64,000 nucleotides of DNA from an uncultured Gammaproteobacteria bacterium (GCA_964411255.1 CAYPKD010000004.1:13093-77092); one strand, 5' to 3'. Shown: positions 22,294 to 61,093, counted from the first letter of the stretch. Program-made: numbers and translations. Notes: generated by a model not told the origin, from the sequence alone.

Positions 22294-23712
22294 ATGAGTG
22301 TTATTACAATTGATGCATTCACTGGTATGTATGGATTTAAGCTGGCAAACAGTAGTGGAGAACCCATTACGTTTGTCAAAAAGGAGGGACATGTTTTTTT
22401 GGACAATAGACCGTCCAAAGCGATTACTGGTATGATCATCGACGGTGAATACAAGCCGTGGAGTGAGATTGGTGTCGGTCATATGTCAGAGGAAGGTACG
22501 GTCCGCTGTATGCGAGGCCAGAGCTCTGACAGGCCGTGCACCAACGTGCGAAGTGCGGCAGACGTTGTCTGTCTCGATATGTATCCCGTTCTGCTTTGCG
22601 TGGATCATGCCAAAGCGGGTTTGTCCCATGCGCGGTCAAAGTATGGGGATCGAATCATGTTCCGACCTCTCCAATCAAGGCTCGCATTTGAGTTGAGGAA
22701 CAATCAGGTTCAGGACCTGATTGCTTCTGGCGAAGGTGGCATGACGAGAGAGCAGCTGATCAAGGCTTTCTCAAGCGTCAAGGCCACGTACAAGCTGGAT
22801 GGCCGCGGAGGAGTCGATTTTGACTCTGCCGATATAGACATGGATCAACTCGAACTGGTGGCCGAGCAGCATTCGGTTGACGGTTCCAAGGCTGACAATG
22901 CCTCTACCAAGGATTCGTTTTTCCTGGTCGGTGACAACAATGAAGAAGACGAAGAACGTTTCTTCGTTTTCTCCGGGCAGAATGCTTTGGCAGCCAGAAG
23001 CGAAGGATGTTCTTCCTTCCCGCTGTCTGAGGCTCTGCTCTATCACCGCAACGGTTTCAAGATGTGGGAAAAGGTAGAGGCGCTGCTATTCGGAGAAGAT
23101 CCCAAGGGATTTCCGATCAAAGAATTGGTCGAAGAAATCTTCGCGGATCTGCTCAGGCCTTGCCCTGGTGATAAGGACTACAGGGCTGAAATCTGGGTGG
23201 AATATCCCAAGGCCTTGGACTTCAAGGTTCTGGTCAGGGCAGCGGTCAAGGCCGGGGTGCTGCAGGATGGCACCGAGCTGAAAGAAGATGAAATCGACAA
23301 TCTCAAGAGCGATCCTCTTTCGCTCATTCGTGGCAACTACGACGGAAAGACCGTCCGTTGGCATGTGATGCGCAAGAGTCTGGCCTTCCTGGCTGCTAGG
23401 ATTCTCAACAAGGCTCGCGAGGGTTCGAGAAGGCAGCAGCCCCATGCGCGACCGTATCCGCTTTGTAGCGGACTGCCCTATCAGCGCGAGAATATCCGGG
23501 CGAAGGCCAAGGAAGCTCGCGCAACCTGGGATGATCTGGATGCTCATGAGCCGACTGCTGAGGAGCAGGCCAAGAATAAGAGGCGCAACAAGCGTTTTGA
23601 CGACAGGGGCAAGGGTGCGCGACGTCGAGCGCGTCCGGTTCCTCGGAAGAAAACCAAAGCAGAAAAGCAGGCTGAATTGCATGCCGAGTTGGATGGCCAC
23701 AATGCTGGCTAA
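22294..23712 (+). CDS. compositionally foreign (GC-rich) hypothetical protein with a basic Arg/Lys-rich C-terminal tail. The track ORF begins at a TTG at 22282.
   Basis: About 50-55% GC by eye versus about 30% in flanks. Long ORF with SD and consensus promoter. Tail KRRNKRFDDRGKGARRRARPVPRKKTKAEKQ. No family recognised. Confidence 0.6.
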   Translation: MSVITIDAFTGMYGFKLANSSGEPITFVKKEGHVFLDNRPSKAITGMIIDGEYKPWSEIGVGHMSEEGTVRCMRGQSSDRPCTNVRSAADVVCLDMYPVLLCVDHAKAGLSHARSKYGDRIMFRPLQSRLAFELRNNQVQDLIASGEGGMTREQLIKAFSSVKATYKLDGRGGVDFDSADIDMDQLELVAEQHSVDGSKADNASTKDSFFLVGDNNEEDEERFFVFSGQNALAARSEGCSSFPLSEALLYHRNGFKMWEKVEALLFGEDPKGFPIKELVEEIFADLLRPCPGDKDYRAEIWVEYPKALDFKVLVRAAVKAGVLQDGTELKEDEIDNLKSDPLSLIRGNYDGKTVRWHVMRKSLAFLAARILNKAREGSRRQQPHARPYPLCSGLPYQRENIRAKAKEARATWDDLDAHEPTAEEQAKNKRRNKRFDDRGKGARRRARPVPRKKTKAEKQAELHAELDGHNAG

Positions 23713-28602: not shown

Positions 28603-29064
28603 TTATGATGCAATCATCATAACATCACCACGAATTTTATTTTCATCCATTAATCGTTCCATATCGTCAATTAATGAATCAGGAGCTCCGCTATCTATAG
28701 TTATATCGCCGCCGACATAAATATCATTTGGCATATGTTTTATTGACGTGTATTTCATTTCTATATCCCTTTCAACATGCAGGCCTGCTGGTAACCTTTT
28801 TAAATCTTCAGCATAGCTAATAATTAAATCTCTGCGGATATGTAAATTTGGCGGCAGCATTTGTATTTCGGGATTTAATTCCAGGTCGCCATTTACTATA
28901 ATTTTTCCTTCCTGTAAAGTTACTTTATCTAGAAATTTATTAATATCTTTTTCATCAAAAAAACCGTTTGATTCTTGAGCCCATTTTTTTAAGGACTTCA
29001 TATCAGGAATTTTCTTGGGTTCAGCTGATTCGATTTTTCCTGGTTCTTTTTCCATATTATTCAT
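28603..29064 (-). CDS. stand-alone homolog of the paralog family C-terminal repeat domain (lacks the conserved N-terminal module)
   Basis: ..LPPNLHIRRDLIISYAEDLKRLPAGLHVERDIEMKYTSIKHMPNDIYVGGDITI.. and tail ..ENKIRGDVMMIAS, matching the family LP repeats and GKIKGDV cap. Confidence 0.6.
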   Translation of the reverse strand: MNNMEKEPGKIESAEPKKIPDMKSLKKWAQESNGFFDEKDINKFLDKVTLQEGKIIVNGDLELNPEIQMLPPNLHIRRDLIISYAEDLKRLPAGLHVERDIEMKYTSIKHMPNDIYVGGDITIDSGAPDSLIDDMERLMDENKIRGDVMMIAS

Positions 29065-29263
29065 TAATTATGTGTTAAATATTGATATTTTTATTATATA
29101 GCAATGCAAAAAAAAACAACAGTTGACAGATTTTTTTTATTTGGTACAATAAATTAGCAGTCTCGTACTTCGAGTGCTAAAAACAGATCAACGGATCGCA
29201 ACAGATTCAACTGATATTAATTAATTTCCGTTGTATCCGTTGTTGATCTGTGGATCCGTAATT

Positions 29264-31894
29264 ATGAATATAAACAAATTAACTATCAAATCTCAAGAAG
29301 CTTTGCAAAGCGCGCAAAACACCTCTTTTGAGTATAAAAATGCTCAGCTTGACGTGCTGCATTTGCTTTTTGCTTTACTAAAACAAAAAGACAGTATTGT
29401 CCTTACAATTCTAAAAAAACTTGATAAAGACACTGAAAAAATTATTAAGAAAACAGAATCAACATTACGTCAATTGCCTAAGGGAGAAATGCCCCAAGCT
29501 CAGGGACAGCTTTATGTCTCCCCTGCCTTGAATTATGTAATGGCAAATTCAGAACAAGTGGCTGAAAGTTTAGGAGATGAATTTGTCAGTACAGAACATT
29601 TATTCTTAACCCTGATCCAGGTAGAAAGCCAGGCAGCAGATATATTGGCGGAAAATGGTTTAAAATACGAAGATGTATTAAAAATTTTATCAGAAGTTAG
29701 AGGCGCTCAAAAAGTAACTGACCCAGATCCTGAAAGTAAATATCAGGTTTTGGAAAAATATACTATAAATTTAACAGAGGAAGCCAGGCAGGAAAAGCTA
29801 GATCCGGTTATAGGCAGAAATGATGAAATCAGAAGAGTGCTGCAAGTTCTATCTCGCAGAACAAAAAACAATCCTGTTTTAATTGGTGAACCTGGGACAG
29901 GTAAAACCGCTATTGCAGAAGGCTTGGCTCAAAGAATCGTATCTGGAGATGTGCCTGAAAATCTAAAAAATAAAGAAGTCATTTCCTTAGATTTGGGTTC
30001 CTTAATTGCTGGTACAAAGTTTAGGGGTGAATTTGAAGACAGATTAAAAGCGGTTTTAAAAGAAATTCAAAAAAATTCAGATAAATTCATTGTCTTTATT
30101 GATGAGCTTCATACAATTGTCGGCGCTGGTGCCACTGAAGGAGCAATGGATGCTTCTAATTTATTAAAACCAGCCTTGGCCAGGGGTGAACTTCGCTGTG
30201 TTGGCGCAACAACCATTAAAGAATATCGAAAGCATATTGAAAAAGATGCAGCGCTAGAGCGAAGATTTCAGCCTGTGTTAGTTGTGGAGCCTTCAATTGA
30301 AGATACGATCGCAATTTTGCGTGGCATTAAAGAAAAATATGAAGTCCATCATGGAGTAAGGATTACAGATGATGCTATTGTTTCAGCTGCAAATTTATCT
30401 CAAAGGTATATTACTGAAAGATTTTTACCTGATAAGGCGATTGATTTAATTGATGAAGCTACTTCAGCTCTCCGAATTGAATTAAATAGTATGCCAGATG
30501 ATTTGGACCAATTACAAAGAAAGATTAAGACTTTGGAAATTGAAAAACAGGCATTAAGTCAGGAGAAAAATGATGAATCAAAACAAAAGCTAAAAGAATT
30601 GGAAAAACAGCTTGAGGAATTAAAAGAGCAGTCAAACCAGCTTGAAATTCATTGGAAGAAAGAAAAAGAAATCATTTCAAAAATTCAGGGTGCTAATAAA
30701 GATATAGACAAATTAAAGCAGGAAGCTGATATTTTAGAAAGAAAGTCTGAATTTGATAAAGTGGCTGAGATCCGTTATGGGAAAATTCCTGAATTAGAAA
30801 AAGAAATTGAAACGCAAAAGCAACGTTTGGCAAAAGTTCAGACAGGCCCTGGCGGAAAGCAAATATTAAAGGAAGAAGTAACAGCTGAAGATATTGCTTC
30901 AGTTGTTGCTAAATGGACAGGTATTCCTGTAACAAAGATGCTTAAGTCTGAAATCGAAAAATTAGCAGATGCTGAAAAAGAATTGGAAAAGCGGGTTGTT
31001 GGTCAAAAAGAGGCAATAAAAGCTGTCTCAAACGCGTTGAGACGTTCACGGGCAGGTCTATCAGAGGAATCAAGACCGATTGGCTCATTTATATTTATGG
31101 GACCAACAGGTGTTGGTAAAACGGAGCTTGCAAAGGCTTTAGCAGAATTCATGTTTAATGATGAAAATGCTTTAATTAGAGTTGATATGTCGGAATACAT
31201 GGAAAAGCATTCTGTTTCTAAATTTATTGGTTCACCTCCTGGTTATATTGGTCATGATGAAGGCGGTCAATTAACTGAATCTGTTAGAAGACGCCCATAT
31301 TCTGTGGTATTGTTTGATGAAATTGAAAAAGCTCATCCAGATGTGTTTAATTCATTGCTTCAATTGTTAGATGATGGCAGATTGACTGATTCAAAAGGCC
31401 GAGCTGTGAATTTTAAGAATACTATTATCATAATGACCTCAAATATTGGCAGTGATTTGATATTACAAATGTCACAGCAGGGTGAAATAGGTTTTGCTGA
31501 TGAGAAAGAAAAGAAACCGTCAGAAGATAATACAAAAAATAAAATTTTAGAAATGCTTAGAGAAAGGTTTAAACCAGAATTTTTAAATCGAGTGGACGAT
31601 ATTATTATGTTTGAAAGTTTGGCTAAATCTCATTTGGCAAAGATTGTAAATTTACAGCTTAAAGAGATAAAGAAAAGATTAGAAATCAAACAGATAAATC
31701 TTGAGTTTACAGATGCAATAAAAAAACATTTGGCTGATAAAGGATATGACCCAGCTTATGGGGCAAGACCTTTGAAGCGAGTGATTCAAAATGAAATTTT
31801 AGATGAATTAGCAATGAAAATAGTTACTAATGAAATTAGTGAACAAAAAAGTATTACAGTCGATTTTAGTGACAATAAAGTTATATTTGTTTAA
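29264..31894 (+). CDS. clpB: ATP-dependent chaperone ClpB (ORF extends to 29231; likely start [14 protein letters not shown])
   Basis: Clp N-domain. Two AAA+ modules (GEPGTGKT and GPTGVGKT Walker A). Long middle coiled coil. About 875 aa. Confidence 0.95.
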
Positions 31895-39672: not shown

Positions 39673-41748
39673 TTATCTAAGCCAATCGTCAACCTGATCA
39701 TCTGTCGGGCTTGGCACAGGTGGCAATGGCGGATGATATTTTATTGAGTCTAATTTGTTCAGAATATCCAGCTCTTGATTTAATTCATTATCCCCTATTT
39801 TATCCATTTCATTTTGGAAATATTTTGCAAAATCTTCAAAAATGTCTACATAATGTTCAGAAACAACAAGCTCCAATGACTGTCGCTCCCATTGGCCAAG
39901 CTCATATGGCCATGGCGCAATTAATCCAATTTCCTCAGTTACCCGGAAATCCATTACTTCTGGTTCTGGCATTCTGCCTGATGTCATGCCGCTATAATAT
40001 TCTCTTTCATCAATTATCCAATTTTTTATTAAATCAGCATATCTTGAAAGTAAAATACCTTTTTGAATTCCATTGTTTTGATAATAATCAGATTTTTTAT
40101 TTTCAAAATCAATCTTTTTTTCATCAGAATCTTTTTTTCCAGATCTGTCTTCATACGTTGTCTTTAATACAAGTTTACCATTATCTGATGTTTTTTTAAG
40201 TTTTAATAGTACAATTCCACCTTTGGTCTCTCCTTCCTTTGTTTTTGAAGGAAACAAAGTATTTACTTTCATAATTTCTCCGGTAGCTTCATCTGCTTCA
40301 GGTGATCCATAAACTTTTTCAATATCATAACCGTCAGCTTCTAATATTAAATTTAGATCAAAGACCAGTGGCGTAACCATAAATTCAAATTCATCATCCA
40401 TTCTGGTTTTGAATTCATCTTCTGAATGAACAGAATAATAATTTGCTCCTCTGATTTTGGTTAAAGATTCAACAAGATCAGTATTAAAATCAACTCCAAT
40501 TCCAATAAATGTGGTATAAAGGCTATCTTCTGAATTGTTTTCCAGCTGTGAAAATAACCCGCCTCTGGTTGTATCTCCCAAGTTTGGCATTGCATCAGTT
40601 AAAAATATTATTCTATTCTCATATTCATCAGGATTCAATGCCCCTAGCTCATCAAAAAGCTCTGTGCCCTCTTTCATCCCAGCTTCCATATTTGTGCCGC
40701 CCATTGGTTGAATTTTTAAAATATGATCTTCAATTGCATTCATGTCAGTATTACCAACATAATTGAGCGGCTTGGCAAGATATCCATTATCGTCAAAAAG
40801 CACCATCCCAAACCTGTCTTCATCATTTAAATGGTCAAGCAAGGCAACAACAGATTCATTAGCAATTTCCATTTTAGTTTTGTCTGATTCTTTTAAATTC
40901 TCCCTTTCAAGCTGATTGCCAAACTGATCATAATAATATTTATTGAATTGAGAGCTCATTGATCCTGAAATGTCCAACACAATCACCAGGTTAAGCTTTT
41001 TGCGCTCAAAATCGCTTTCCTTTAGGTTTGAATTTAAACCGACTGCTAGATAGTAATCATCTTTATTTGAAATAGGATCTTTAGAAATTGCATATGAATA
41101 GGACGGGCAAAATAATTTTTCGCATTCTTGAGCTTTGCCAGTATCAAAATAATAGTCATAAAACAGGCCTTCATAAGTTATATCAGTTGGCAATGGCAAA
41201 AAATTATTTTTAATATTTTCTCTAAAATTATTAATATCTTTTGCTCCGCCAACAGCAAAACCAATGCTATCATCACCTGCTCCTCCCATTCCATCAGCAG
41301 GAGCCAGACTGGTTTCCAATGCCATATTTTTCATACTTGGTACGCCAGCTTTTTGAGACAAGCTTCTGAAAAATCCAGCATCTTCTTCTTCCTTAGAATA
41401 ATCAAATGTCCAGTCATCCACTTTTTCAACCTGAACAAATACTGGTGGTTCGCCTTGTATATATGTTTTATAAAAATACGGGCCCCCAAAGGCCAGAAGC
41501 AAGATAATTGCTGTAGCGCCTGAAAATGCAAATATCCAGCGCCGCAATTTTTTTAATTGCGCTTTTTTTTCACTGCCCTTTGCTTTTACTTTTAGTTTCT
41601 TTTGCAAATCATTTACAAATTGCTTTGATATTACAATGTTTGGCTTGTTTTTGAGCATTTCTTTTAGCATTTTATTTAATTTTGCCTCATGTTTTTTCAT
41701 AGTGGGATCGATTTTGTAGATTTCTTTTAGTATTTTGTTGATGTTCAT
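39673..41748 (-). CDS. membrane-anchored von Willebrand factor A (VWA) domain protein; candidate anti-sigma factor partner of the upstream ECF sigma
   Basis: About 75-aa cytoplasmic N-terminus and a single TM (WIFAFSGATAIILLLAFGG). Extracytoplasmic VWA with MIDAS DISGSMSS. Gene immediately downstream of and co-directional with the ECF sigma gene. Confidence 0.65.
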   Translation of the reverse strand: MNINKILKEIYKIDPTMKKHEAKLNKMLKEMLKNKPNIVISKQFVNDLQKKLKVKAKGSEKKAQLKKLRRWIFAFSGATAIILLLAFGGPYFYKTYIQGEPPVFVQVEKVDDWTFDYSKEEEDAGFFRSLSQKAGVPSMKNMALETSLAPADGMGGAGDDSIGFAVGGAKDINNFRENIKNNFLPLPTDITYEGLFYDYYFDTGKAQECEKLFCPSYSYAISKDPISNKDDYYLAVGLNSNLKESDFERKKLNLVIVLDISGSMSSQFNKYYYDQFGNQLERENLKESDKTKMEIANESVVALLDHLNDEDRFGMVLFDDNGYLAKPLNYVGNTDMNAIEDHILKIQPMGGTNMEAGMKEGTELFDELGALNPDEYENRIIFLTDAMPNLGDTTRGGLFSQLENNSEDSLYTTFIGIGVDFNTDLVESLTKIRGANYYSVHSEDEFKTRMDDEFEFMVTPLVFDLNLILEADGYDIEKVYGSPEADEATGEIMKVNTLFPSKTKEGETKGGIVLLKLKKTSDNGKLVLKTTYEDRSGKKDSDEKKIDFENKKSDYYQNNGIQKGILLSRYADLIKNWIIDEREYYSGMTSGRMPEPEVMDFRVTEEIGLIAPWPYELGQWERQSLELVVSEHYVDIFEDFAKYFQNEMDKIGDNELNQELDILNKLDSIKYHPPLPPVPSPTDDQVDDWLR

Positions 41749-49563: not shown

Positions 49564-50271
49564 TTATTTTAGATCAATTTCTCCTTTAATTTTACCTTCT
49601 TTTTTACGTTTTACCAGCTCCTTTATCATTTCTGTTTCATGCTCTTTTATATATACTCTTCCCCCAACATATATATCATCTGGTATTTTTTTATTTTTTA
49701 TTGAAGTTCCGGATAAACTTAGAGATCCTTCAACTCTAAGGCTATTGGGTAAACAATCTATATTTGCGTTCACAAAAGTACAAGTTTGTGTAACATGCAA
49801 ATTAGCTGGCATCTTTTCAACAGTTGAATTTACTAATGATAAATTGCCATTAATGCGTAAATTGTTTGGTAAAAACGATAACTTCATACTTCGTAAGTTT
49901 AGATCTGATTTTGTTTTTATTACTGGTAATTCATCTAATATAAAAGCTGCATCAACATAATTTGCCGCATTTTCCTCCCAGGAATAAATCTGAATTGCCC
50001 AGCTAATTAAATGAGCTCTGGCAACTTTAACGTCTTTAATCTCCTTTTCAACTTTTTTTTCTTTTATTTTAAGCAACTCATTTTTATAATCAGTATAAAA
50101 ATTTAATGCTTCCTGCAATTCTCCAGCTTTTTCCGCAGCTACTGCTTTATCCATAATCTCACCCAGAAAGTCCTTTTCTTCTGGAGTTAAAGGTACACGC
50201 TTAACCTCAGCCCGCCGCGGGCGGACCATTTTTAATTGACTTTCTAATGATTGAGGTTCTTCTGTTTTCAT
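49564..50271 (-). CDS. paralog family member C1
   Basis: N-terminal module MKTEEPQSLESQLKMVRPRRAEVKRVPLTPEEKDFLGEIMDKAVAAEKAGELQEALNFYTDYKNELLKIKE. C-terminal LPNNLRINGNLSL / LPNSLRVEGSLSL repeats. Tail ..KKEGKIKGEIDLK. Confidence 0.8.
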   Translation of the reverse strand: MKTEEPQSLESQLKMVRPRRAEVKRVPLTPEEKDFLGEIMDKAVAAEKAGELQEALNFYTDYKNELLKIKEKKVEKEIKDVKVARAHLISWAIQIYSWEENAANYVDAAFILDELPVIKTKSDLNLRSMKLSFLPNNLRINGNLSLVNSTVEKMPANLHVTQTCTFVNANIDCLPNSLRVEGSLSLSGTSIKNKKIPDDIYVGGRVYIKEHETEMIKELVKRKKEGKIKGEIDLK

Positions 50272-50274
50272 ATT

Positions 50275-50988
50275 TTACATTTCAGTTATTACTCTACCTC
50301 TGATATTACCTTCTGATTTTAATTGGTGGGCTTTGTTAATCACTTTTTTATTGCAATTTACAAGAAAAATATCTGCTCCAACATATAATTCATCTGGCAA
50401 ATCCTGAATTGTTGAATTATTCATATCTAGATTTCCATCAACATGCATATTTTCTGGTAAAGATTCAATTTGGGCGTGATCCATAAGAACGTCTCCATTC
50501 ACATCTAAATTTGTGCCAATCCATTCTTTTACTACAGCTCTATCCAGATCCAAACGTCCATAAATTGTTATATTTGCAGGAAATTCATCGATTACCTTAG
50601 CAGCCAATTCTAAATCTCCCACAGTCTCCAGTTTAGGGAGTTTTGGTATATCAAAAATTTTGTGAGCCTTTTCCTCAAAAGTCATTTCTTCTGGTGGTGT
50701 TTTAAAGACATTTTCAACCCACTTTACCAATTTTTCTTTTGTCCAGCCTGTTTCTTCTTTTTTTTCTTTTTCCCTTGTTTCTTTAATCCTTAACAATTCA
50801 TTCTTATAATCCGTGTAAAAATTTAAGGCCGCTTGCAATTCTCCTGCCTTTTCCGCAGCCACAGCCTTATCCATAATCTCACCTAGAAAAGCCTTTTCTT
50901 CTGGAGTTAAAGGTACACGTTTAACCTCATGGCGCCGCGGGCGAGCCATTTTGAGTTGGGATTCGAGTGATTGGGCTTTTTCCTTCAT
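50275..50988 (-). CDS. paralog family member C2
   Basis: Same N-terminal module. C-terminal repeats. Tail ..KSEGNIRGRVITEM. Confidence 0.8.
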   Translation of the reverse strand: MKEKAQSLESQLKMARPRRHEVKRVPLTPEEKAFLGEIMDKAVAAEKAGELQAALNFYTDYKNELLRIKETREKEKKEETGWTKEKLVKWVENVFKTPPEEMTFEEKAHKIFDIPKLPKLETVGDLELAAKVIDEFPANITIYGRLDLDRAVVKEWIGTNLDVNGDVLMDHAQIESLPENMHVDGNLDMNNSTIQDLPDELYVGADIFLVNCNKKVINKAHQLKSEGNIRGRVITEM

Positions 50989-50991
50989 ATT

Positions 50992-51645
50992 TTATAAAAA
51001 TTTTATTTCACCTTTGATCAGACCTTTTTCCTTTAATTTATTAAATTTATCCTTCAACTCATTAAGAGTTTTAATAGTTAATCCTATATCTTCTACATAT
51101 AAATTCCCACCAATAAATATTGAATCAGGGATATGCATATTTTCAATATCATAACCTGGTATTAATAAATTTGCGCCAACATGAAAGTTTTCAGGTAAAC
51201 TTTTTATTCTTGTATTTCTCAGCGTACAGCTACCTGCAACTTTAAAATTATTCGGTAATTCTGTGGCATTTGAATCTTCTAATTTAAAATTATCTTTAGT
51301 CCTAATTTCATTAGAGTCATCATCCATACAGGTAGGATCAAGCCATTGAAATATCCATTCCATTGGATTTCCTTCAATGAATTCATCAGCCCAAGCTTCT
51401 AGATCTGCATAACCCCAGGTTTGCTCTACTTTTTCCTTTATTTTCAACAATTCATCTTTATATTCTTGATAATATTCAATTGCCTTTGCTAATTCTCCAG
51501 CCTTTTCCGCAGCCACAGCCTTATCCATTATCTCACCTAGAAAAGCCTTTTCTTCCGGAGTAAGCGGTACACGTTTAATCTCAGCGCGTTTTGGGCGGGC
51601 CATTTGGAGTTGGGATTCGAGTGATTGTTCTGGAGTATTTTGCAT
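50992..51645 (-). CDS. paralog family member C3
   Basis: Same N-terminal module. Distinct Trp-rich middle (TWGYADLEAWADEFIEGNPMEWIFQWLDP). LPNNFKVAGSCTL / LPENFHVGANLLI repeats. Tail ..KEKGLIKGEIKFL. Confidence 0.8.
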   Translation of the reverse strand: MQNTPEQSLESQLQMARPKRAEIKRVPLTPEEKAFLGEIMDKAVAAEKAGELAKAIEYYQEYKDELLKIKEKVEQTWGYADLEAWADEFIEGNPMEWIFQWLDPTCMDDDSNEIRTKDNFKLEDSNATELPNNFKVAGSCTLRNTRIKSLPENFHVGANLLIPGYDIENMHIPDSIFIGGNLYVEDIGLTIKTLNELKDKFNKLKEKGLIKGEIKFL

Positions 51646-51650
51646 AGTTC

Positions 51651-52352
51651 TTATGTTATTTTAATATCACCCTTGATATCGCCCTGCTTTTTAAATTTCT
51701 CTATTTCTTTTACCATATCTGGGTCTGATTCACTTACATATACTTCTTCTTCAACATGTAAAGATTCAGGTTCTTTTTTATTATTTATTTCAGCTTTTGT
51801 CATATCTAAAAGACCTCCAATAATCATGGTTTTTGGTAATTGATTAATTTTTACAAATCTTAAAATACAATTTTCATTCGTATATAAAGCATTTGGCATT
51901 TTCTTAATAGTACAGTTGGTTGAAACAAAGCTCCCATTAACATGTAAAACGTTTGGCAAATCCTCAAGTATCATATTATTAAAGGTCATATTTCCTTTTG
52001 TTTGAATTATAGGTAATTCATCTAATACAAAATTTGCCTCTACATATCTCTCAGCTCTTTGTGTTGATAATCCTAGATTTCTTATAGCCCAATGAATTAA
52101 ATCTTGCTCAGTCCATTCCTTTTCTTCCTCTTCTTTTCTTTCTTTTATTTTTAGCAATTCATTCTTATAATCAGTATATAAATCCAAAGCTTCCTGCAAT
52201 TCCCCAGCCTTTTCCGCAGCCACAGCCTTATCCATAATTTTTCCTAAAAATTCCTTCTCTTCTGGTGTTAAAGGAACACGCTTAACCTCAGCACGCTTTG
52301 GCCGGGCCATTTTGAGTTGGGATTCTAAGGATTGTGGTTGTTCTTTTGGCAT
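51651..52352 (-). CDS. paralog family member C4
   Basis: Same N-terminal module. Tail ..KKQGDIKGDIKIT. Confidence 0.8.
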   Translation of the reverse strand: MPKEQPQSLESQLKMARPKRAEVKRVPLTPEEKEFLGKIMDKAVAAEKAGELQEALDLYTDYKNELLKIKERKEEEEKEWTEQDLIHWAIRNLGLSTQRAERYVEANFVLDELPIIQTKGNMTFNNMILEDLPNVLHVNGSFVSTNCTIKKMPNALYTNENCILRFVKINQLPKTMIIGGLLDMTKAEINNKKEPESLHVEEEVYVSESDPDMVKEIEKFKKQGDIKGDIKIT

Positions 52353-52380
52353 AAAGTCATTAGATATTTATCATTGTTCA

Positions 52381-52542
52381 TTAGGGTTTAAAATAGGGCC
52401 GCTGCTTTGGATTACGCAAAACTAACAGAAAGATTTCTCCATTCCGTCCGCCCTTGGCGGACTTCAGTCGAAATGACAAGCGAGGGCAGCGAGCCATTTG
52501 GAGTTGGGATTTGGGTAATTGTGGCTTTTCTTTTATGTTCAT
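52381..52542 (-). pseudogene. truncated paralog remnant: first 18 codons of a family gene (MNIKEKPQLPKSQLQMAR) fused to a copy of the hairpin repeat element
   Basis: Reverse-strand translation matches the family N-terminus up to QMAR and then reads into the repeat element (52385-52500, reverse orientation; about 85% identity to copy 1). Confidence 0.6.
52385..52500 (-). repeat. GC-rich hairpin repeat element, copy 3 (inside the truncated paralog)
   Basis: Reverse complement reads CGCTGCCCTCGCTTGTCATTTCGACTGAAGTCCGCCAAGGGCGGACGGAATGGAGAAATCTTTCTGTTAGTTTTGCGTAATCCAAAGCAGCGG. Collinear with copy 1, including the palindromic hairpin and the TAGTTTTG..CCAAAGC(A/T)GCGG tail. Confidence 0.55.
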
Positions 52543-52548
52543 ACGAAT

Positions 52549-53256
52549 TTAATTCTTCCAAATAATTTCTCCAATGATTTTCCCTTCACCTTTTAATTTA
52601 TTTAATAGGTCCATAACATTTCCATGAATTGGTTTATTCAAATACACATTGCCTCCAATGAAAATTGTATCTGATATTTTATTATCAATAAAAACTATGT
52701 CATCTAATATTAAATCTCCACTAATATTTAATAGGGCTGGTATTGTATCAATATTGGCTTTTTGTATTAATAAATTCTTATCAACAGTTAATGTCTGAGG
52801 CATTTTTTTAATGATACCTTGTATGGTCATAGATCCTTTTACATGAATATTTTCAGGTATCGTTTCTATATTGACATGTGAAGATAAATCTAAGTCTTTC
52901 TTGGCAATTATTTTGGGATATTCTTCAAAATCAAAATGCTCATCTACCCAGCTTTCACAATCTCTGGCAATTTCATGTTGTTTTGCCCATTCTATAAGAT
53001 CATTTCTTTGCTGCAGTCGTAAAGATTGCTCTTTTTCTAATCGTTCTTTAATCTTCAATAATTCATTCTTATATTCTGTATACAAATCCAAAGATTTTTG
53101 CAATTCCCCGGCCTTTTCCGCAGCCACAGCCTTATCCATAATGTCGCCTAAAAATTCTTTTTCCTCAGGTGTCAATGGTACACGCTTAACCTCAGCACGC
53201 TTTGGCCGGGCCATTTTAAGTTGATTTTCTAATGATTGCGGCTGTTCTTTCTTCAT
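52549..53256 (-). CDS. paralog family member C5 (track ORF extends to 53319; family-consistent start MKKEQPQSLENQLKMARP at 53256)
   Basis: Same N-terminal module. Start lies 1 nt after the AMMECR1 stop. Tail ..KGEGKIIGEIIWKN. Confidence 0.75.
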   Translation of the reverse strand: MKKEQPQSLENQLKMARPKRAEVKRVPLTPEEKEFLGDIMDKAVAAEKAGELQKSLDLYTEYKNELLKIKERLEKEQSLRLQQRNDLIEWAKQHEIARDCESWVDEHFDFEEYPKIIAKKDLDLSSHVNIETIPENIHVKGSMTIQGIIKKMPQTLTVDKNLLIQKANIDTIPALLNISGDLILDDIVFIDNKISDTIFIGGNVYLNKPIHGNVMDLLNKLKGEGKIIGEIIWKN

Positions 53257-53257: not shown

Positions 53258-53791
53258 TTATTCTGAAAAAATTTCGGACTGATAAGAATAAATCTCGACT
53301 TTAGGATCTTTCCAAGCATCTTCTGGTAAGCCTGCCTTTAAGCATAAATTACTTAAAAAGTCTTCTTTTGTTTTAAAATGTTTCCAAACTTGAGGCAGGT
53401 ATGTGGCTTTTTCTGCACCATATTTTAATACAATGCCATCAATGCCGATTTTAATATGATCCAGCTTTACTTTTTCCGGAACGGTCAAAACTGATATTTC
53501 AATTTTAATATCTTTTAATTCATCGTTTTGCAAAGGTAAAAACCGAGGATCATCAAAAGCTGCAGCTAATGCATTTTGTTTTACTGCTTCCCAAAGTGAT
53601 GTAATTGCCTCAATATAACCAATACAGCCGCGCAATTCTTCATTCTTATGTAAAGTAACAAACACACCTCTGTGCTCCAGAAACTTTTTATTATCAGTTT
53701 GAGGATTAAAATCAGTACCCTCAAGCTTTGCTTCAATGCTTTTCCTTGCTAATTGCAATAATTCGATTTTTTCATAATCAAAAAAAGGCAT
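53258..53791 (-). CDS. AMMECR1-domain protein (AmmeMemoRadiSam system protein A family)
   Basis: ..GVFVTLHKNEELRGCIGYIEA.. The LRGCIG motif is diagnostic of AMMECR1. Confidence 0.85.
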   Translation of the reverse strand: MPFFDYEKIELLQLARKSIEAKLEGTDFNPQTDNKKFLEHRGVFVTLHKNEELRGCIGYIEAITSLWEAVKQNALAAAFDDPRFLPLQNDELKDIKIEISVLTVPEKVKLDHIKIGIDGIVLKYGAEKATYLPQVWKHFKTKEDFLSNLCLKAGLPEDAWKDPKVEIYSYQSEIFSE

Positions 53792-53846: not shown

Positions 53847-54314
53847 TTAACTGTGGAACTTTAAATAGTATGCAAAAACACCCCAGGCAACTGCTACATT
53901 TAATGATTCTTTAATACCTTTCATTGGTAAATGAACTGTTTTATCTACTTTTAATAATAAACTCTTTGATATGCCCTCAACCTCATGTCCAAGAACAACT
54001 GCAATAGGAAATTGCGGCTTGAATTTGCGATAATCAATGCTGCTCTTTGTTTTTTCTAAAGCAATTATCTGATAGCCCTGCTTTTTCAAATCATCGATTA
54101 ATTTCCCTGGCTGTTTATAATATTCCCAGTCAACAGACTTTTCAGCATCAAGAGCTGTTTTTGTAATTTTCTTTTCATCTTTATCTGGTCTTGGCGTATA
54201 ACCAGTAATATATATTTTTTCAATATTGCATGCATCGCTTGTTCGAAAAATAGAACCTACATTATATGCGCTTCTAATATTTGGTAGTATAAGAATTATG
54301 TTTTTCTGTCTCAT
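53847..54314 (-). CDS. SpoU-family RNA 2'-O-methyltransferase, TrmL-like (about 155 aa)
   Basis: ..NVGSIFRTSDA.. SAM-binding knot motifs. Size matches TrmL/YibK. Adjacent to queA. Confidence 0.75.
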   Translation of the reverse strand: MRQKNIILILPNIRSAYNVGSIFRTSDACNIEKIYITGYTPRPDKDEKKITKTALDAEKSVDWEYYKQPGKLIDDLKKQGYQIIALEKTKSSIDYRKFKPQFPIAVVLGHEVEGISKSLLLKVDKTVHLPMKGIKESLNVAVAWGVFAYYLKFHS

Positions 54315-55336
54315 AAAATCAACATAGAATCTCCAAAACTATAAAATCTATACCCTTTCTGAATTGCCTTATTATAAATGCTCAATATTTTTGCTCGGCC
54401 TGTTAATGCGGCGATTAGCATAATTAATGAACTCTTTGGTAAATGAAAATTTGTGATAATTCCGTCAATAGTTTTGAATTTATATGATGGATAAATGAAG
54501 ATATCTACTTTGCCTTTCCATGCCTTTTTTATTTGCTTTTGGCCAATAGCTCCTTCCAAAACTCTGGCTGAGGTTGTGCCCACAGCAATAATTCGTCTGC
54601 CTTGTTTTTTTGCTTTTAATAATTTTTCTAAATTTGTTTTATTAATTTCAATACTTTCAGAATGAAGTTTATGTTTTTCTATATCTTCAGATCGTACAGG
54701 TGCAAAGGTTCCCAATCCTACATGTAAAGTTACAAAAGCAGTTTCAATGCCTTTTTTGTTTAATTTATTTAACACTTTTTTTGTAAAATGAAGACCAGCG
54801 GTAGGGGCGGCTGATGAACCAAATTGTTTCGCATATATTGTTTGATATTGTTTTTTAAGTTTTGCCTGCTTTTCATTTGATTTTATATAAGGCGGAAGCG
54901 GTACTAAACCTATTTTTTCGATAATTTTATAAAAATCTCCTGAATATTTGAACTTAACCTGCCATTCCATATCACTTATTCTATTTACTAACTCTGCCTC
55001 AAGTTTATCAGAAAATATTACTTTCATTCCTTTTTTCTTATTTTTTACTCCAACCAAAGCCTTCCAAGTCTTGTTTTCAATCTGTTCAAGCAGCAGAACC
55101 TCTACTTTGCCCCCTGTGAGCTTTTTACCAATCAATCTGGCTGGATATACTTTTGAATCATTAAAAACCAGCAGATCCCCTTTCTGTAAATATTTATCAA
55201 TATTAAAAAATTTATCATGAATAATCTTGTCTCTTTGTCTATTATAAACAAGCAGCCTCGATTTATCTCGAGGATGCAATGGTTTTTGAGCAATTAGCTC
55301 TTTTGGTAAATTATAATCAAAGTCTGATAGTTTCAT
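54311..55336 (-). CDS. queA: S-adenosylmethionine:tRNA ribosyltransferase-isomerase
   Basis: N-terminus MKLSDFDYNLPKELIAQKPLHPRDKSRLLV is a near-canonical QueA start. 341 aa. Confidence 0.9.
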   Translation of the reverse strand: MKLSDFDYNLPKELIAQKPLHPRDKSRLLVYNRQRDKIIHDKFFNIDKYLQKGDLLVFNDSKVYPARLIGKKLTGGKVEVLLLEQIENKTWKALVGVKNKKKGMKVIFSDKLEAELVNRISDMEWQVKFKYSGDFYKIIEKIGLVPLPPYIKSNEKQAKLKKQYQTIYAKQFGSSAAPTAGLHFTKKVLNKLNKKGIETAFVTLHVGLGTFAPVRSEDIEKHKLHSESIEINKTNLEKLLKAKKQGRRIIAVGTTSARVLEGAIGQKQIKKAWKGKVDIFIYPSYKFKTIDGIITNFHLPKSSLIMLIAALTGRAKILSIYNKAIQKGYRFYSFGDSMLIL

Positions 55337-55337: not shown

Positions 55338-55997
55338 TTAAAAACGTTCTTTTATACCTAAAACTCGTCCTGCTCTTAAAGCCTCTAGAGCTGATTTGAT
55401 TAAAGCTTTATTATCTGGGCTTACATAAACTTTACCGTTTACAGTATTGAATTGAGGTAATGATTTTATGTTTAAGCCCCGCAAATCTAGATCACCATTC
55501 ACCTCTAAATGTTCAGGTAATTCTATTATGTTTTTAGAATCTTTTAATGAAAGATCTCCAATAATGTATAAATTCTCAGGTAAATATTCCAAATTATCTT
55601 CATTTTCAATGCTCAATGAGCTATTAATAATAATTTTTCCTGGAAAATCCTCATCAAATTCTACTGCTGAATTCACCCAAAATTTTGCAAATGAAATGTT
55701 TGTCAAATTCGTTTTAACCCAGTCAATAAGCCCTTTCCTGGCTTTTTCAATAATTTCTTGTTTTGACATTGTTTGGCTTTCCTTTCTTTCTTTTATTTTC
55801 AGCAATTCATTCTTGTAATCAGTATAAAATCCCAAGGCCTTTTCTAATTCTCCAGCCTTTTCAGCAGCCACTGCCTTATCCATAATCTCGCCCAGAAACT
55901 TCTTTTCTTCTGGAGTCAATGGCACGCGCTTAACCTCAGCGCGCTTTGGACGGGCCATTTTGAGTTGGGATTCTAAAGATTGGGATTTTTCCGGCAT
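55338..55997 (-). CDS. paralog family member D1
   Basis: N-terminal module MPEKSQSLESQLKMARPKRAEVKRVPLTPEEKKFLGEIMDKAVAAEKAGELEKALGFYTDYKNELLKIKE. LPENLYIIGDLSL / LPEHLEVNGDLDL / LPQFNTVNGKVYV repeats. Confidence 0.8.
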   Translation of the reverse strand: MPEKSQSLESQLKMARPKRAEVKRVPLTPEEKKFLGEIMDKAVAAEKAGELEKALGFYTDYKNELLKIKERKESQTMSKQEIIEKARKGLIDWVKTNLTNISFAKFWVNSAVEFDEDFPGKIIINSSLSIENEDNLEYLPENLYIIGDLSLKDSKNIIELPEHLEVNGDLDLRGLNIKSLPQFNTVNGKVYVSPDNKALIKSALEALRAGRVLGIKERF

Positions 55998-55998
55998 A

Positions 55999-56667
55999 TT
56001 ATTTTACTTGAGTAACTTTACCTATTTGTCCTTTTTTTTCCAATTTTTTAGCTTGATCTAGCAGATCTGTATCAGTTTTTTTAATAAATATATTCATTGC
56101 TACTTTTAGATCATCTGGTAACTCTTTGATATTCGCATTTACAAGATGAAGATCTTTATTAACTACTAGGTTTCTAGGCAAATACTTAAAATCATTCCGT
56201 TCAATAATTAAAGTCCCATCAACAATTAAATGATTTGGTAATCTTTTAATATCATAAACAGCAGGATTGATTCGAAGATCACCTTTTATTTTAAGATGTG
56301 GAAGAGGGGCTGATCTGTCAAACTTCTTCTCTATCCAATTTACAGCAGCTTGTCCTGAAAATCCGACTTCATTATGTACCCAGTCTAATACCTCTTCAGG
56401 AAGATTTAAATCAAAACCCTCATCTGACTTTTTTTTCTTTTCTTGTTCTTTTTTATCTTTTATCCTTAATAATTCATTTTTATAATCAGTATACAAATTC
56501 AAAGCTTCTTGCAATTTCCCAGTTTTTTCCGCAGCTACAGCTTGATCCATTATCTTTCCGAGAAAATCCTTTTCTTCAGGAGTTAAAGGCACACGCTTAA
56601 CTTCAGCGCGCTTTGGGCGGGCCATTTTGAGTTGATTTTCTAATGATTGGGGTTGTTCTTTTGGCAT
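55999..56667 (-). CDS. paralog family member D2
   Basis: Same N-terminal module. LPNHLIVDGTLII / LPRNLVVNKDLHL / LPDDLKVAMNIFI repeats. Confidence 0.8.
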   Translation of the reverse strand: MPKEQPQSLENQLKMARPKRAEVKRVPLTPEEKDFLGKIMDQAVAAEKTGKLQEALNLYTDYKNELLRIKDKKEQEKKKKSDEGFDLNLPEEVLDWVHNEVGFSGQAAVNWIEKKFDRSAPLPHLKIKGDLRINPAVYDIKRLPNHLIVDGTLIIERNDFKYLPRNLVVNKDLHLVNANIKELPDDLKVAMNIFIKKTDTDLLDQAKKLEKKGQIGKVTQVK

Positions 56668-56675
56668 AATTAGAG

Positions 56676-58157
56676 CTAAATTTCTATTACTCTTTTTACA
56701 TATGTATTTTCATCTTTAGCAATGATATACGCCTTATTATCATTAATTGGTACAACATGGTAAATTTTATCATAATCCTCACTAACTTTTTCTCTTTTTT
56801 CATTTACCATAAACCATTTATCACCTTTTTTTGCTTTAAAAACTAGCGTTCCTTCAATATCCTCAACAGAACTAATTTTATCATATTCATCACTAATTTT
56901 TTCACCTTTTTCATTAATTAAAAATTGTTTTCCATCGTTTTCTGCATAAAAAATGATCCTACCTCCAATATCTAATGGATGCCTGACAAAATCATAGTCT
57001 TTTCCAATAATTTCACCCTTTTCATTTACAATGTATTTTTTTTTCTTGATTTTAACTTGATAAAACATAATTCCTGCAACATTGAAAATGAACTCGATTC
57101 CATCATAATCTTCACTAAGTTTTTTGCCTTTTTCATCCACGATAAACCATTTATCATCTTTTTTTGCTCCAAACACAAGTTTGCCCCCGATGTTTTTTGG
57201 AGTACCAATTTCCTCATAATCTTGTTCAAGTTCTTCCCCTTTTTCATTGACGATAAACCATTTATTATCTCTGGTTGCCGAGAAAACAATATTCCCCCCA
57301 ATATTATCCAGATATGAAATCCATTCATATCCTTTACTGATTTTTTCTCCTTTTTCATTAAATACAAACCATTCGCTACCCTGTCTGGCATGGAAAAACA
57401 TTTTATCTTCAAAAAATTGAGGAGGATCAATAGCATTATATTCTTGCCCATATTTACCTTCTTTTTCATTCACCAGAAACCATTTACTACTATTTTTTTT
57501 TGTTTCACAGGCATGAAATACACATTCTCCTTTTACATTCATTAGATTTGAAACAGATGAATAATTGCTGCCAATCTTTTCTCCTTTCTCATTTACTACA
57601 AAGTATTCATCGTTTTTCATTCCACTAATAAATAACTGCCCGGCTATATCAGTAATATGATGTATTTCATCAAACGCTGCTCCTATTCTTTCTCCCTGTT
57701 CATTAACTACAAAACTCTTCTTATCCTGTTCAACAGGAAAAAATAACCTGCCTAGGCTATGCATAGGATTATGAGCAAAGTCATAGCCTTTTCCGATCTT
57801 TCTGTCTTGCCCATAAATAACATAAAATTTGCCATCTTTTTTTGCACTAAAAGCAATTTTACCTTCTATATCTGAAGGCTCATAATATTCTTCGTACTCA
57901 TCTAAATTTATTGTATATTCCTGTTCCTTTTCTGAAATAGATTCCTTTATCTTTAACAATTCATTCTTATAGTCTGTATAAAATCCCAAAGCCTTTTCTA
58001 ATTCTCCAGCCTTTTCCGCAACTACAGCTTTTTCCATAATCTCACCTAAGAATTCTTTTTCCTCAGGTGTCAACGGTACACGTTTAACCTCAGCGCGCTT
58101 TGGACGTGCCATCTTCAATTGACTTTCAAGTGATTGTTCAGTTTGTTCTGCTTTCAT
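56676..58157 (-). CDS. paralog family member D3: N-terminal module fused to about ten WG-like (KWF-variant) beta repeats
   Basis: N-terminal module, then about 38-aa repeats DKWFIVNEKGEKISxDYDxI....IGGxLVFxAKKD. 493 aa. Confidence 0.8.
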   Translation of the reverse strand: MKAEQTEQSLESQLKMARPKRAEVKRVPLTPEEKEFLGEIMEKAVVAEKAGELEKALGFYTDYKNELLKIKESISEKEQEYTINLDEYEEYYEPSDIEGKIAFSAKKDGKFYVIYGQDRKIGKGYDFAHNPMHSLGRLFFPVEQDKKSFVVNEQGERIGAAFDEIHHITDIAGQLFISGMKNDEYFVVNEKGEKIGSNYSSVSNLMNVKGECVFHACETKKNSSKWFLVNEKEGKYGQEYNAIDPPQFFEDKMFFHARQGSEWFVFNEKGEKISKGYEWISYLDNIGGNIVFSATRDNKWFIVNEKGEELEQDYEEIGTPKNIGGKLVFGAKKDDKWFIVDEKGKKLSEDYDGIEFIFNVAGIMFYQVKIKKKKYIVNEKGEIIGKDYDFVRHPLDIGGRIIFYAENDGKQFLINEKGEKISDEYDKISSVEDIEGTLVFKAKKGDKWFMVNEKREKVSEDYDKIYHVVPINDNKAYIIAKDENTYVKRVIEI

Positions 58158-58183
58158 ATTGTTATATGATATATGTTACATGA

Positions 58184-58906
58184 TTAAAGTTTTTCAGGCA
58201 TAAATGATGCCTTTTCCGTTTTCATTAATTCTTTAATATACTTTTGTGCTTTTTTATCTTTTTTTATTGACTCTTCAAGATCCTTTTCAATCTCTGGCTT
58301 AATGTCCATCTCAAATCGTTCAAATGATTTTTCTGATAAATTTTCATCATTTAAAATTTCAATAATTTTCAAACTCTCTTCAGGTAAATTAAAAAAATCA
58401 AGCGAATTATCCTTTTCAACATTATATTTGTCAATCAATATTCTTCTAAATTTTCTCAGACCACCTATTTCAGCCATTGAATCTAAAACGAGCTCTTTTT
58501 GATTAACTACAAAATTTATTTCTTCCTGCCAATGCTGCGGGTCATCAGCCTTAGCCTTAGCCTTTGCCATTGTATATCTGCGAATTAAATAATCTAAAAT
58601 CATTTCTCTTTTATATAATGTTTTAATATTATCAATTATCTCTTCATGTTTTTTCTCCTTTATACGATTTATTTCTTTTTTCCTCTCTTCCTGCAATTTA
58701 TCGTTTATTTTCATTAATTCGTTTTTATAATCAGTATACAAATCTAGGGCTTCTTTTAGTTTCCCCGCTTTCTCTGCCGCCACTGCCTTATCCATTATCT
58801 TTCCGATAAATTCCTTTTCTTCTGGCGTTAAGGGCACACGCTTAACCTCACTCCGCCGCGAGCGGGCCATCTTCAATTGACTTTCAAGTGATTGTTCTGC
58901 TTTCAT
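58184..58906 (-). CDS. paralog family member D4: N-terminal module fused to an unrelated charged helical C-terminal region
   Basis: N-terminal module (MKAEQSLESQLKMARSRRSEVKRVPLTPEEKEFIGKIMDKAVAAEKAGKLKEALDLYTDYKNELMKI). C-terminal part lacks LP repeats. Confidence 0.75.
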   Translation of the reverse strand: MKAEQSLESQLKMARSRRSEVKRVPLTPEEKEFIGKIMDKAVAAEKAGKLKEALDLYTDYKNELMKINDKLQEERKKEINRIKEKKHEEIIDNIKTLYKREMILDYLIRRYTMAKAKAKADDPQHWQEEINFVVNQKELVLDSMAEIGGLRKFRRILIDKYNVEKDNSLDFFNLPEESLKIIEILNDENLSEKSFERFEMDIKPEIEKDLEESIKKDKKAQKYIKELMKTEKASFMPEKL

Positions 58907-58921
58907 ATTGGTTTGAGCAAG

Positions 58922-59557
58922 TTACTGTTCTTCCAATCCCTTTACTCTCCCTTCGTTTATGGCTTTTAGTACAGATTCTCTTAATTTAGTTTTTGATGCA
59001 TTACTAATAACTTTGCAATCAACTCTAATATCATCAGGCAATACTACAATATCAGTATCCAACAAATTTAAATTTCCTCTAACATGTAAATTATTGGGTA
59101 AATCGCCTAATGATGTGCCTTTTAATGAGAATTCTCCATCAATCTCTAAATTTTCAGGCATTTCAGTACAATTTTTTTTATGTTCAATTTTAATAGGACT
59201 ATCAACTATAATTTTTGGATATTTACTAAAATCAACATTAGCATCTGTCCATGATTCAATATTTGTATCTTCTATAAAAATTGATGAAAGCCATTCAATA
59301 AATTTTTGCCTGGTATTTTTTATTTTTTCAATTTGTTCCTTTTCTTCCTTTATTTTATTTAATTCATTTTTATAATCTGTATAATACCCCAAAGCCTCAG
59401 CCAATTTTCCTGCCTTTTCCGCAGCTACAGCTTTATCCATAATCTCACCTAAAAAAGCCTTTTCTTCTGGAGTTAATGGCACACGCTTAACCTCACTCCG
59501 CCGCGGGCGGGCCATTTGGAGTTGATTTTCTAATGATTGTTTTGGCTTTTCTTTCAT
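58922..59557 (-). CDS. paralog family member D5 (track ORF extends to 59596; family-consistent start MKEKPKQSLENQLQMARP at 59557)
   Basis: Same N-terminal module. LPNNLHVRGNLNL / LPDDIRVDCKVIS repeats. Confidence 0.75.
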   Translation of the reverse strand: MKEKPKQSLENQLQMARPRRSEVKRVPLTPEEKAFLGEIMDKAVAAEKAGKLAEALGYYTDYKNELNKIKEEKEQIEKIKNTRQKFIEWLSSIFIEDTNIESWTDANVDFSKYPKIIVDSPIKIEHKKNCTEMPENLEIDGEFSLKGTSLGDLPNNLHVRGNLNLLDTDIVVLPDDIRVDCKVISNASKTKLRESVLKAINEGRVKGLEEQ

Positions 59558-59599
59558 AATAAAGGTAATATATTTCCGCTGATTTGGGATATTCAATTC

Positions 59600-59672
59600 T
59601 GTTAAATAGATCTCTCGACTGCGCCCTTCACAAGCTCAGGGCTTCGCTAGAGATGACAGCTGGACAGCGGTA
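59600..59672 (-). repeat. GC-rich hairpin repeat element, degenerate copy 4 (immediately upstream of array D)
   Basis: Reverse complement CCGCTGTCCAGCTGTCATCTC-TAGCGAAGCCCTGAGCTTGTGAAGGGCGCAGTCGAGAGA. Shares the GCTG(T)CC..GTCAT head and a GC hairpin. Shares 10-11-mers with 27538-27560 and 44770-44782. Confidence 0.4.
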
Positions 59673-59678
59673 TTAAAC

Positions 59679-61000: not shown

Positions 61001-61020
61001 GTGATTTATATCCTGGAATT

Positions 61021-61092
61021 ATAATTACTGCGTTAGGTAATACAAAACTATTAGCAAATTCCCACCTTTGCGGGAATGACGGACAGGACAGC
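61021..61092 (-). repeat. GC-rich hairpin repeat element, copy 5
   Basis: Reverse complement GCTGTCCTGTCCGTCATTCCCGCAAAGGTGGGAATTTGCTAATAGTTTTGTATTACCTAACGCAGTAAT. Collinear with copy 1 over about 70 nt. Confidence 0.55.
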
Positions 61093-61093
61093 T

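Follow-up and report, generated by a model that had tools for sequence, protein, structure and literature searches.

Array D, at positions 55338-59557 on the minus strand of the 64,000-nt stretch of DNA analysed here (GCA_964411255.1 CAYPKD010000004.1:13093-77092, hereafter the window), consists of five co-directional, paralogous genes, D5 to D1, which follow one another with spacers of 15, 26, 8 and 1 nt and lead directly into the tRNA-modification gene queA, the start of which (55336) is separated from the D1 stop (55338) by a single nucleotide. Both the five-gene layout with 1-26 nt spacers and the tight junction with queA had been described in an earlier note made from the sequence alone, and both are borne out by the open reading frame (ORF) listing; moreover, the arrangement is identical on the source contig and on contig duplicates. 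The start of D5 at 59557 is backed by the paralog alignment and by a Joint Genome Institute (JGI) gene call; the ORF lister extends the frame to a TTG codon at 59596.

Three such clusters (arrays A, C and D) occur in the window with five genes each, and the 15 paralogs add up to 11.2 kb, or 17.6% of its length. Their paralogy is far beyond chance, with 15 matches to a degenerate 32-nt motif encoding VKRVPLTPEEK against 0 expected in shuffled sequences, and the reading frames of all 15 are intact. Every one of the proteins begins with the same nearly invariant 72-residue N-terminus (QSLESQLKMARPKRAEVKRVPLTPEEKEFLGEIMDKAVAAEKAGELQEALNLYTDYKNELLKIKE), hereafter the head, within which all 34 invariant columns of the 15-protein alignment fall; a Lys/Glu-rich linker follows, beyond which the sequences diverge. 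The head, a small, non-enzymatic and helical domain of 72 residues, resembles an adaptor domain in being joined to diverse modules in several proteins of one genome, with at least five types of tail in the family.

The tails of D1, D2 and D5, together with those of all members of arrays A and C, comprise 3-4 leucine-rich repeats (LRRs) of the form LPxxLxVxGxLxLxxxxIxx, followed by a short helix. Those of D1, D2 and D5 follow the repeat pattern of the LRR superfamily, with conserved P and G columns, and have significant sequence or fold matches to solved LRR proteins. The repeats of D3, visible in the DNA as six 99-nt copies spaced at multiples of 111 nt, have no Pfam or PDB sequence match, and the same architecture is present in three relatives (P0036, P0068 and P0085). 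D4 is 41% identical over its full length to P0055, a protein from a related locus described below, and its C-terminus has no match in PDB or Pfam. An AlphaFold2 model of D1 (predicted local distance difference test score, pLDDT, 88) combines a helical head with a beta-solenoid; the modelled head is a three-helix bundle, its structure matches are generic three-helix bundles, and Foldseek returned no match in PDB at E <= 0.001. Family members have no match in NCBIfam, PADLOC has none for D1, D3, D4 or lectin-type members, and none of the Pfam adaptor-domain families gives a match at E <= 0.1. A head-less ORF of 153 aa elsewhere in the window (28603-29064, minus strand), which adjoins ClpB (29231-31894), weakly resembles the LRR tails only (29-34% identity).

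Head and tails differ in their divergence. Over the head core (64 codons), paralog pairs have a nonsynonymous divergence (dN) of 0.10, a synonymous divergence (dS) of 1.13 and a ratio of the two (omega) of 0.09, identity at first, second and third codon positions is 86%, 94% and 59%, and two paralogs from the same array are no more alike than two from different arrays. Consequently, the copies are old and the head is under strong purifying constraint at the level of the protein; recent gene conversion, considered as a cause of head conservation, is ruled out by the dS of ~1.1 and the 59% third-position identity. Paralog pairs of LRR tails, in contrast, have a dN of 0.81, a dS of 1.32 and 27% amino-acid identity, and the C-termini are swapped or fast-diverging. 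Comparison of orthologues with a relative of 85% nucleotide identity gives omega values of 0.04-0.10 for flanking genes against 0.22 for D1 (0.33 for its C-terminal part) and 0.22 for C1. The features of the three arrays and their surroundings are summarised in Table 1.

Table 1 Coordinates of the family arrays, leader-element copies and neighbouring genes, counted from the first letter of the window
Feature	Position	Strand	Description
Leader, AhpC-D5	59558-59678	-	121 nt; terminal inverted repeats, hairpin, conserved box
D5	58922-59557	-	211 aa from ATG; first gene of array; N-terminal domain + short LRR solenoid
D4	58184-58906	-	240 aa; N-terminal domain + helical, charged C-terminal domain
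D3	56676-58157	-	493 aa; N-terminal domain + ~ten 37-residue beta-rich repeats
D2	55999-56667	-	222 aa; N-terminal domain + LRR
D1	55338-55997	-	219 aa; N-terminal domain + LRR
queA	54311-55336	-	S-adenosylmethionine:tRNA ribosyltransferase-isomerase; PF02547, 426 bits; downstream, non-family
SpoU-family gene	53847-54314	-	2'-O-methyltransferase, 155 aa; PF00588; 4-nt overlap with queA
AMMECR1	53258-53791	-	AMMECR1 / AmmeMemoRadiSam system protein A; PF01871; TIGR04335 201 bits (cut-off 99)
Array C	49564-53256	-	five LRR-type paralogs; first gene 1 nt after AMMECR1
C5	52549-53256	-	array C, LRR-type
Leader copy	52353-52480	-	heads C4-C1; abuts truncated 18-codon paralog fragment
C4	51651-52352	-	array C, LRR-type
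C3	50992-51645	-	array C, LRR-type
C2	50275-50988	-	array C, LRR-type
C1	49564-50271	-	array C, LRR-type
Leader copy	6540-6634	+	heads array A; degenerate copy
Array A	6635-10287	+	five LRR-type paralogs; between PBP2 and GreA
Leader copy	61001-61093	-	before unrelated DUF389 gene; degenerate copy

The leader upstream of D5 is bounded by 6-bp terminal inverted repeats (CCGCTG...CAGCGG) and contains a GC-rich hairpin (59608-59657) and a promoter-like box, TTGAAT-18-TATATT (59596-59567), which ends 10 nt before the D5 start codon. The earlier note had taken it for a copy of a repeat element, and this stands in so far as the window contains four degenerate copies, this one included, of a composite element of ~90 nt (GC-rich hairpin plus promoter-like -35/-10 box), although no near-exact copy of 59558-59678 exists within the window. 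Short terminal inverted repeats are found in three of the four copies and paralog arrays follow three of the four; an array-specific leader element is ruled out by the copy before the DUF389 gene. Its features make the element look like a terminator/promoter module, and it is possibly mobile in the manner of a miniature inverted-repeat transposable element (MITE).

At the starts of arrays A and D, leader and 5' coding sequence share 79% identity (6587-6874 vs 59318-59605). Within array A, A2-A3 and A4-A5 represent a segmental duplication of two genes (7546-8186, 9006-9646) with a period of 1460 nt and 80-89% nucleotide identity, and the tails of A2 and A4, at 72% identity, make up the youngest pair in the window. 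In the gap between C5 and C4 (52353-52548, minus strand), the truncated 18-codon paralog N-terminus (MNIKEKPQLPKSQLQMAR; ~52488-52541, within 52481-52548) directly adjoins the leader-element copy, and such a junction may have arisen when the GC-rich MARP codons served as a site of insertion or recombination. Elsewhere in the window, a 1.4-kb island (22300-23700, plus strand) with 50-58% GC, against 32% for the genome, contains an ORF of 476 aa (22282-23712) that matches nothing in Pfam or Rfam; the island is probably of foreign origin. Neither Rfam nor tRNA scans gave a match anywhere in the 64-kb window.

Downstream of array D lie queA, a SpoU-family methyltransferase gene and AMMECR1, and arrays C and D do indeed flank these three genes; the earlier note had described two arrays on either side of the queA/SpoU pair. 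The SpoU-family gene had been called TrmL-like, a label that its profile scores do not specifically support: the RlmB (83 bits) and TrmH (80 bits) models of NCBIfam outscore that for TrmL (38 bits), all three fall under their cut-offs, and the cut-off of the TrmL equivalog, TIGR00185, is 191 bits. Co-transcription of array D with queA is plausible, and on spacing even likely, given the spacers of 1-26 nt from D5 into queA, the overlap between queA and the SpoU-family gene, and a sole promoter-like site upstream of D5.

The earlier note had allowed for coincidence as well as for shared regulation or function. A check for conserved linkage to queA, trmL or AMMECR1 in relatives found queA at one of ~10 family loci, and no linkage to queA, SpoU or AMMECR1 beyond simple synteny, the only other instance being the relative of 85% nucleotide identity (loci L005/L006). 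There, only one D1 orthologue (78% identical) stands between AhpC and queA, with 2-nt and 1-nt junctions, and the 3.67 kb that hold the leader and D5-D2 are missing, such that the AhpC/queA site carries 1 paralog compared with 5 in the window; in L005, sequence similarity links the 3' end of AhpC to the D2/D1 junction, a hint that the difference arose by deletion in the relative. Close relatives also differ in the number of copies at the CysRS/Dus site (4 copies in L007, 1 in L015). Further loci lie between PTAC and AckA (L012, L018, L019, L025), between DUF2304 and a glycosyltransferase of family GT2 (L023, L036) and after glutamate racemase (L027, L035, with an M50 peptidase on the other side in L035), and other neighbours of the family include PBP2/GreA, AMMECR1/YhaM, an epimerase, a Mur ligase and a D-Ala-D-Ala carboxypeptidase. 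Since the adjacency to queA recurs only in a syntenic relative, and the family is otherwise found beside many unrelated genes, a function shared with tRNA modification is unsupported; with queA at one locus in about ten, and 5 copies there in one genome but 1 in the other, coincidence is favoured, and the adjacency of D1 and queA appears incidental, a matter of synteny and position and not of a functional link.

The family as a whole has a narrow distribution. A profile of the 15 proteins recovered only 60 clusters among 5.8 billion, all metagenomic, and a head-only profile recovered 58 representatives among 1.84 billion proteins, while a search of the family profile against 185,579 species-representative genomes found no relative and a queA-based scan of species-representative genomes yielded no confirmed one. 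The head stays N-terminal in remote members, the tails of which are 290-residue alpha/beta domains, 37-residue, WD-like or HEAT-like (LAGLDSxxAWExR) repeats, or LRRs; relatives also carry tails with a C-type-lectin fold, for which a PDB sequence search found nothing. The host is an uncultivated, low-GC, small-genome bacterium, probably of the Patescibacteria, the sole taxonomic hint being the names attached to homologues of a von Willebrand factor A (vWA) domain protein discussed below (Patescibacteria, Magasanikbacteria). At least 4 further family copies are located on other contigs of the same genome. In this genome, a further two-gene array of a repeat-type paralog of 460 aa and an LRR-type paralog of 193 aa lies past the end of the window between DUF2304 and a glycosyltransferase (L036:10001-12006), at a distance of 6 kb from a 983-aa protein with a major-vault-protein shoulder domain (L036:17752-20703). 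On another of its contigs, two paralogs of the lectin-fold type, of 365 and 396 aa, sit between glutamate racemase and an M50 peptidase (L035:8950-11191); close homologues of these are hypervariable over the C-terminal 40 residues, and no template repeat for them was found in the 20 kb covered at this locus.

In two other genomes, arrays of the family also hold a second set of genes, namely those of a vWA protein and a 150-aa protein in both, together with that of an AAA_5 ATPase in one. In L012, two D4-like paralogs come first, followed by the genes of an AAA_5 ATPase, a vWA protein and a 149-aa protein, then by a D3-like paralog and, last, by three LRR paralogs; P0055 is two genes upstream of the AAA_5 gene, the D4-like P0056 lies in between, and the ATPase/vWA/149-aa trio spans 10708-14700. 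The order D4, D3, LRR, LRR is thus common to L012 and array D, and L018 (33-2352) repeats the order vWA, 149-aa protein, D3-like, LRR. The vWA protein of these arrays has 660 aa, a CobT_C domain and an HExxH motif in its N-terminal half. In the distant loci L033 and L034, the heads of which are 30-45% identical to those of the window, at least nine paralogs form an array, with orthologues of the vWA protein (52.5% identical) and of the small protein (150 aa, 42% identical; L033:4228-4683, 7960-9975) lying among them. A vWA-domain protein of 691 aa in the window itself (39673-41748, minus strand; VWA_2/VWA) is unrelated by tblastn to the array vWA protein of L012.

L033 also contains the components of a diversity-generating retroelement. 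A 120-nt template repeat (11412-11531) differs from each of two variable regions (7730-7849 and 10988-11106) at 22 positions, 21 of the 22 being template adenines, and the variable regions are the 3' ends (last 40 codons) of two lectin-fold paralogs. A reverse transcriptase (RVT_1) is encoded downstream (11860-12860), with its frame split in two in both of the independent assemblies (L033 and L034). On account of the adenine-biased mismatches and the adjacent reverse transcriptase, some family members are targets of a diversity-generating retroelement. For the lectin-type tails of the window's own clade, a retroelement template was also considered and rejected, as these show ordinary divergence only, without adenine bias.

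We are highly confident in describing array D as one cluster of a lineage-specific multigene family, in which each protein joins the constant 72-residue head to an interchangeable C-terminal module of a usually ligand-binding kind. Going beyond this description, we consider it rather probable that array D is a germline repertoire of variable binding proteins docked via a common N-terminal adaptor, and that its co-transcription with queA is a positional accident. The family would then constitute a repertoire of variable recognition proteins, and the head would be the common adaptor by which every variant docks to one partner. This partner would most likely be the vWA/AAA+ pair, which may capture or remodel the head, a step in which our confidence is moderate to low. 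Diversity in this genome would stem from duplication and divergence, not from retroelement mutagenesis. Array D would be read from a promoter in the leader upstream of D5, and transcription would continue into queA and the SpoU-family gene for no other reason than the array's position within that operon; its function would be unrelated to tRNA modification. A more general proposal, which we put forward as tentative, is that the head is an undescribed adaptor domain of Patescibacteria that plugs interchangeable sensors, whether germline-encoded LRR and beta-repeat proteins or hypermutated lectins, into a single vWA/AAA+ machine.

Several observations weigh against a docked repertoire of this kind. 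By tblastn, none of the AAA_5, vWA and 150-aa genes is present in the window, and no homologue of the array vWA protein was seen on contigs attributable to this genome, for which the contig index is incomplete; the proposed vWA partner may consequently be absent from this genome. A hidden Markov model (HMM) of the head does not match the AAA_5, vWA and 149/151-aa proteins of L012 and L033 (E >= 0.2), and thus the homotypic pairing known from classical adaptor domains is missing here. The vWA family is also much wider than the head family, with at least 152 clusters across Patescibacteria, and the adjacency of head and vWA genes could derive from a shared variable region of the genome, not from a shared function. 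Neither a reverse transcriptase nor a template repeat was found in the window or at any locus of its clade, the family sequences show no apparent signal peptide or membrane-spanning segment, and promoter-like sites are not enriched in the region (38 against 36 in shuffled sequence).

The main rival to a docked repertoire sees the proteins as host-interaction effectors that an episymbiont secretes or translocates, the head serving as a secretion or chaperone-binding signal, for instance for a type IV system, and the tails binding host proteins. We judge this unlikely. Type IV substrates normally carry C-terminal signals; no secretion gene adjoins arrays A, C or D in the window, the tails lack a recognisable toxin or enzyme domain, and it is vWA and AAA+ genes rather than secretion genes that are conserved nearest to the family. 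A true MIT domain, by which the head would tether the tails to membrane-remodelling machinery of the ESCRT-III/PspA-like or Vps4-like kind, is suggested by repeated matches to PF04212 over the hairpin of helices 2 and 3 in many members (14.6-25.9 bits), by a precomputed MIT call on two database members and by the three-helix bundle of the modelled head. However, the scores are all under the 30-bit Pfam threshold, D1, D2, D4 and D5 scoring 14.6-18.6 bits and the best family member 25.9 bits, and we regard this identity of the head as improbable.

Even less credence is due to the idea that the arrays are selfish or decaying DNA, either cassettes spread by the MITE-like leader or functionless pseudogene remnants. 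Such an origin would account for the leader element with terminal inverted repeats that heads three arrays, for the copy of it that interrupts a truncated paralog (52353-52548) and for the unstable copy number, but the frames are intact in 15 of 15 genes, omega is 0.09 in the head and below 1 in the tails, the paralogs have been maintained despite their age (dS ~1.1), and the element, which also precedes the DUF389 gene, resembles a terminator/promoter module. The least probable of the alternatives, and one we consider highly implausible, assigns the paralogs a part in tRNA or rRNA modification alongside queA, the SpoU methylase and AMMECR1, where they might, for instance, confer specificity or act as scaffolds. 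That two arrays flank these three genes with 1-nt junctions, that L005 keeps the adjacency of D1 and queA, and that another array is placed between CysRS and Dus all speak for it; against it stand the single queA locus among about ten and the merely syntenic position of the relative that retains it (85% identity), the other neighbours (PBP2, GreA, AckA, glycosyltransferases, Mur ligase, racemase), a copy number at the queA site that ranges from 1 to 5, and the failure to detect an RNA-binding domain. Moreover, genomes as small as this are rich in translation genes, and adjacency to some of them would be expected.

Were the tentative proposal of a new adaptor domain correct, an ultra-small and probably episymbiotic bacterium would possess a recognition repertoire akin to antigen receptors, and a function could be given to the N-termini of Patescibacterial retroelement targets, in which no feature has been recognised so far. 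Devoting 17.6% of a 64-kb stretch to one family is a large investment for a very small genome, and the family is invisible to Pfam, NCBIfam and PADLOC. The same head is carried by germline-diversified LRR proteins and by lectin proteins hypermutated by a retroelement, i.e. two routes to diversity with one presumed partner, which also offers a way into the role of retroelement targets in Patescibacteria. For annotation, the lesson is that the tight junction with queA is positional and not functional.

Polymorphic effector and toxin families (LXG, MIX, Rhs) combine a constant N-terminal trafficking domain with swapped tails, tandem arrays and rapid turnover. The present family likewise joins a constant head to exchanged tails in tandem arrays that turn over rapidly, but its tails are binding repeats, and neither a toxin/immunity pair nor a cognate secretion system was found. 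With the MIT domain (PF04212), the head shares a three-helix bundle and a signature, A-x-x-A-E-K-A-G-x-L-x-E-A-L-x-x-Y, that aligns with MIT helices 1-2; it differs in an additional conserved N-terminal segment (QSLESQLKMARPKRAEVKRVPLTPEEK) without MIT counterpart and in its sub-threshold scores, and a structure search with the head does not single out MIT domains. The LRR tails resemble FlrP, a periplasmic LRR protein of the Vibrio polar flagellar motor rod (PDB 8z5u; bioRxiv 10.64898/2025.12.04.692373), in their LRR subtype of ~21 residues (LPxxLxVxGxLxLxxTxIxxLP) and short solenoid, with a significant profile and fold match. FlrP, however, is made with a Sec signal peptide and lacks an N-terminal helical domain, and the organism studied here offers no flagellar context; the similarity is confined to the repeat scaffold only.

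Parallels also exist with the MoxR-vWA-centred ternary conflict systems and their effector-associated adaptor domains (EADs), whose vWA domain captures a peptide and whose variable modules are coupled by adaptor domains (Kaur, Burroughs, Iyer and Aravind 2020, PMC7159879). Common to both are a small, non-enzymatic, helical N-terminal domain with varied C-terminal modules, a lineage-specific and multi-copy occurrence and, at some loci of the family (L012, L018, L033), interleaving with genes for an AAA+ ATPase of the MoxR class, a vWA protein and a further small protein. These neighbours vary between loci, in that L012 has both the AAA_5 ATPase and the vWA protein, L018 and L033/L034 have the vWA and 150-aa proteins, and the window has neither the ATPase nor the vWA protein. 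Further differences are that no copy of the head is fused to a core component, that the tails are binding repeats instead of enzymes, and that the host is a tiny-genome bacterium, not a multicellular one, with copies dispersed inside housekeeping operons. PADLOC, for its part, gave only marginal matches for the AAA_5 and vWA proteins.

Retroelement-diversified proteins with a C-type-lectin fold have been described as "putative antigen sensors" linked to MoxR/vWA genes (Dore et al., PNAS 2024, PMC10907252), and the clade-2 retroelement targets of Patescibacteria are reported to have N-terminal parts without recognisable domain (Roux et al. 2021, PMC8144416). As far as we have searched the literature, the head domain is apparently undescribed for retroelement targets. 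The 15 paralogs of the window differ from such targets in their LRR, repeat or helical tails and in a germline diversity encoded by duplication, and neither array D nor the window as a whole includes a retroelement target; only the lectin-type paralogs of L033 qualify. In that locus the likeness is close, with head-bearing paralogs whose lectin-fold tails are mutagenised at adenines standing beside both a reverse transcriptase and a vWA gene.

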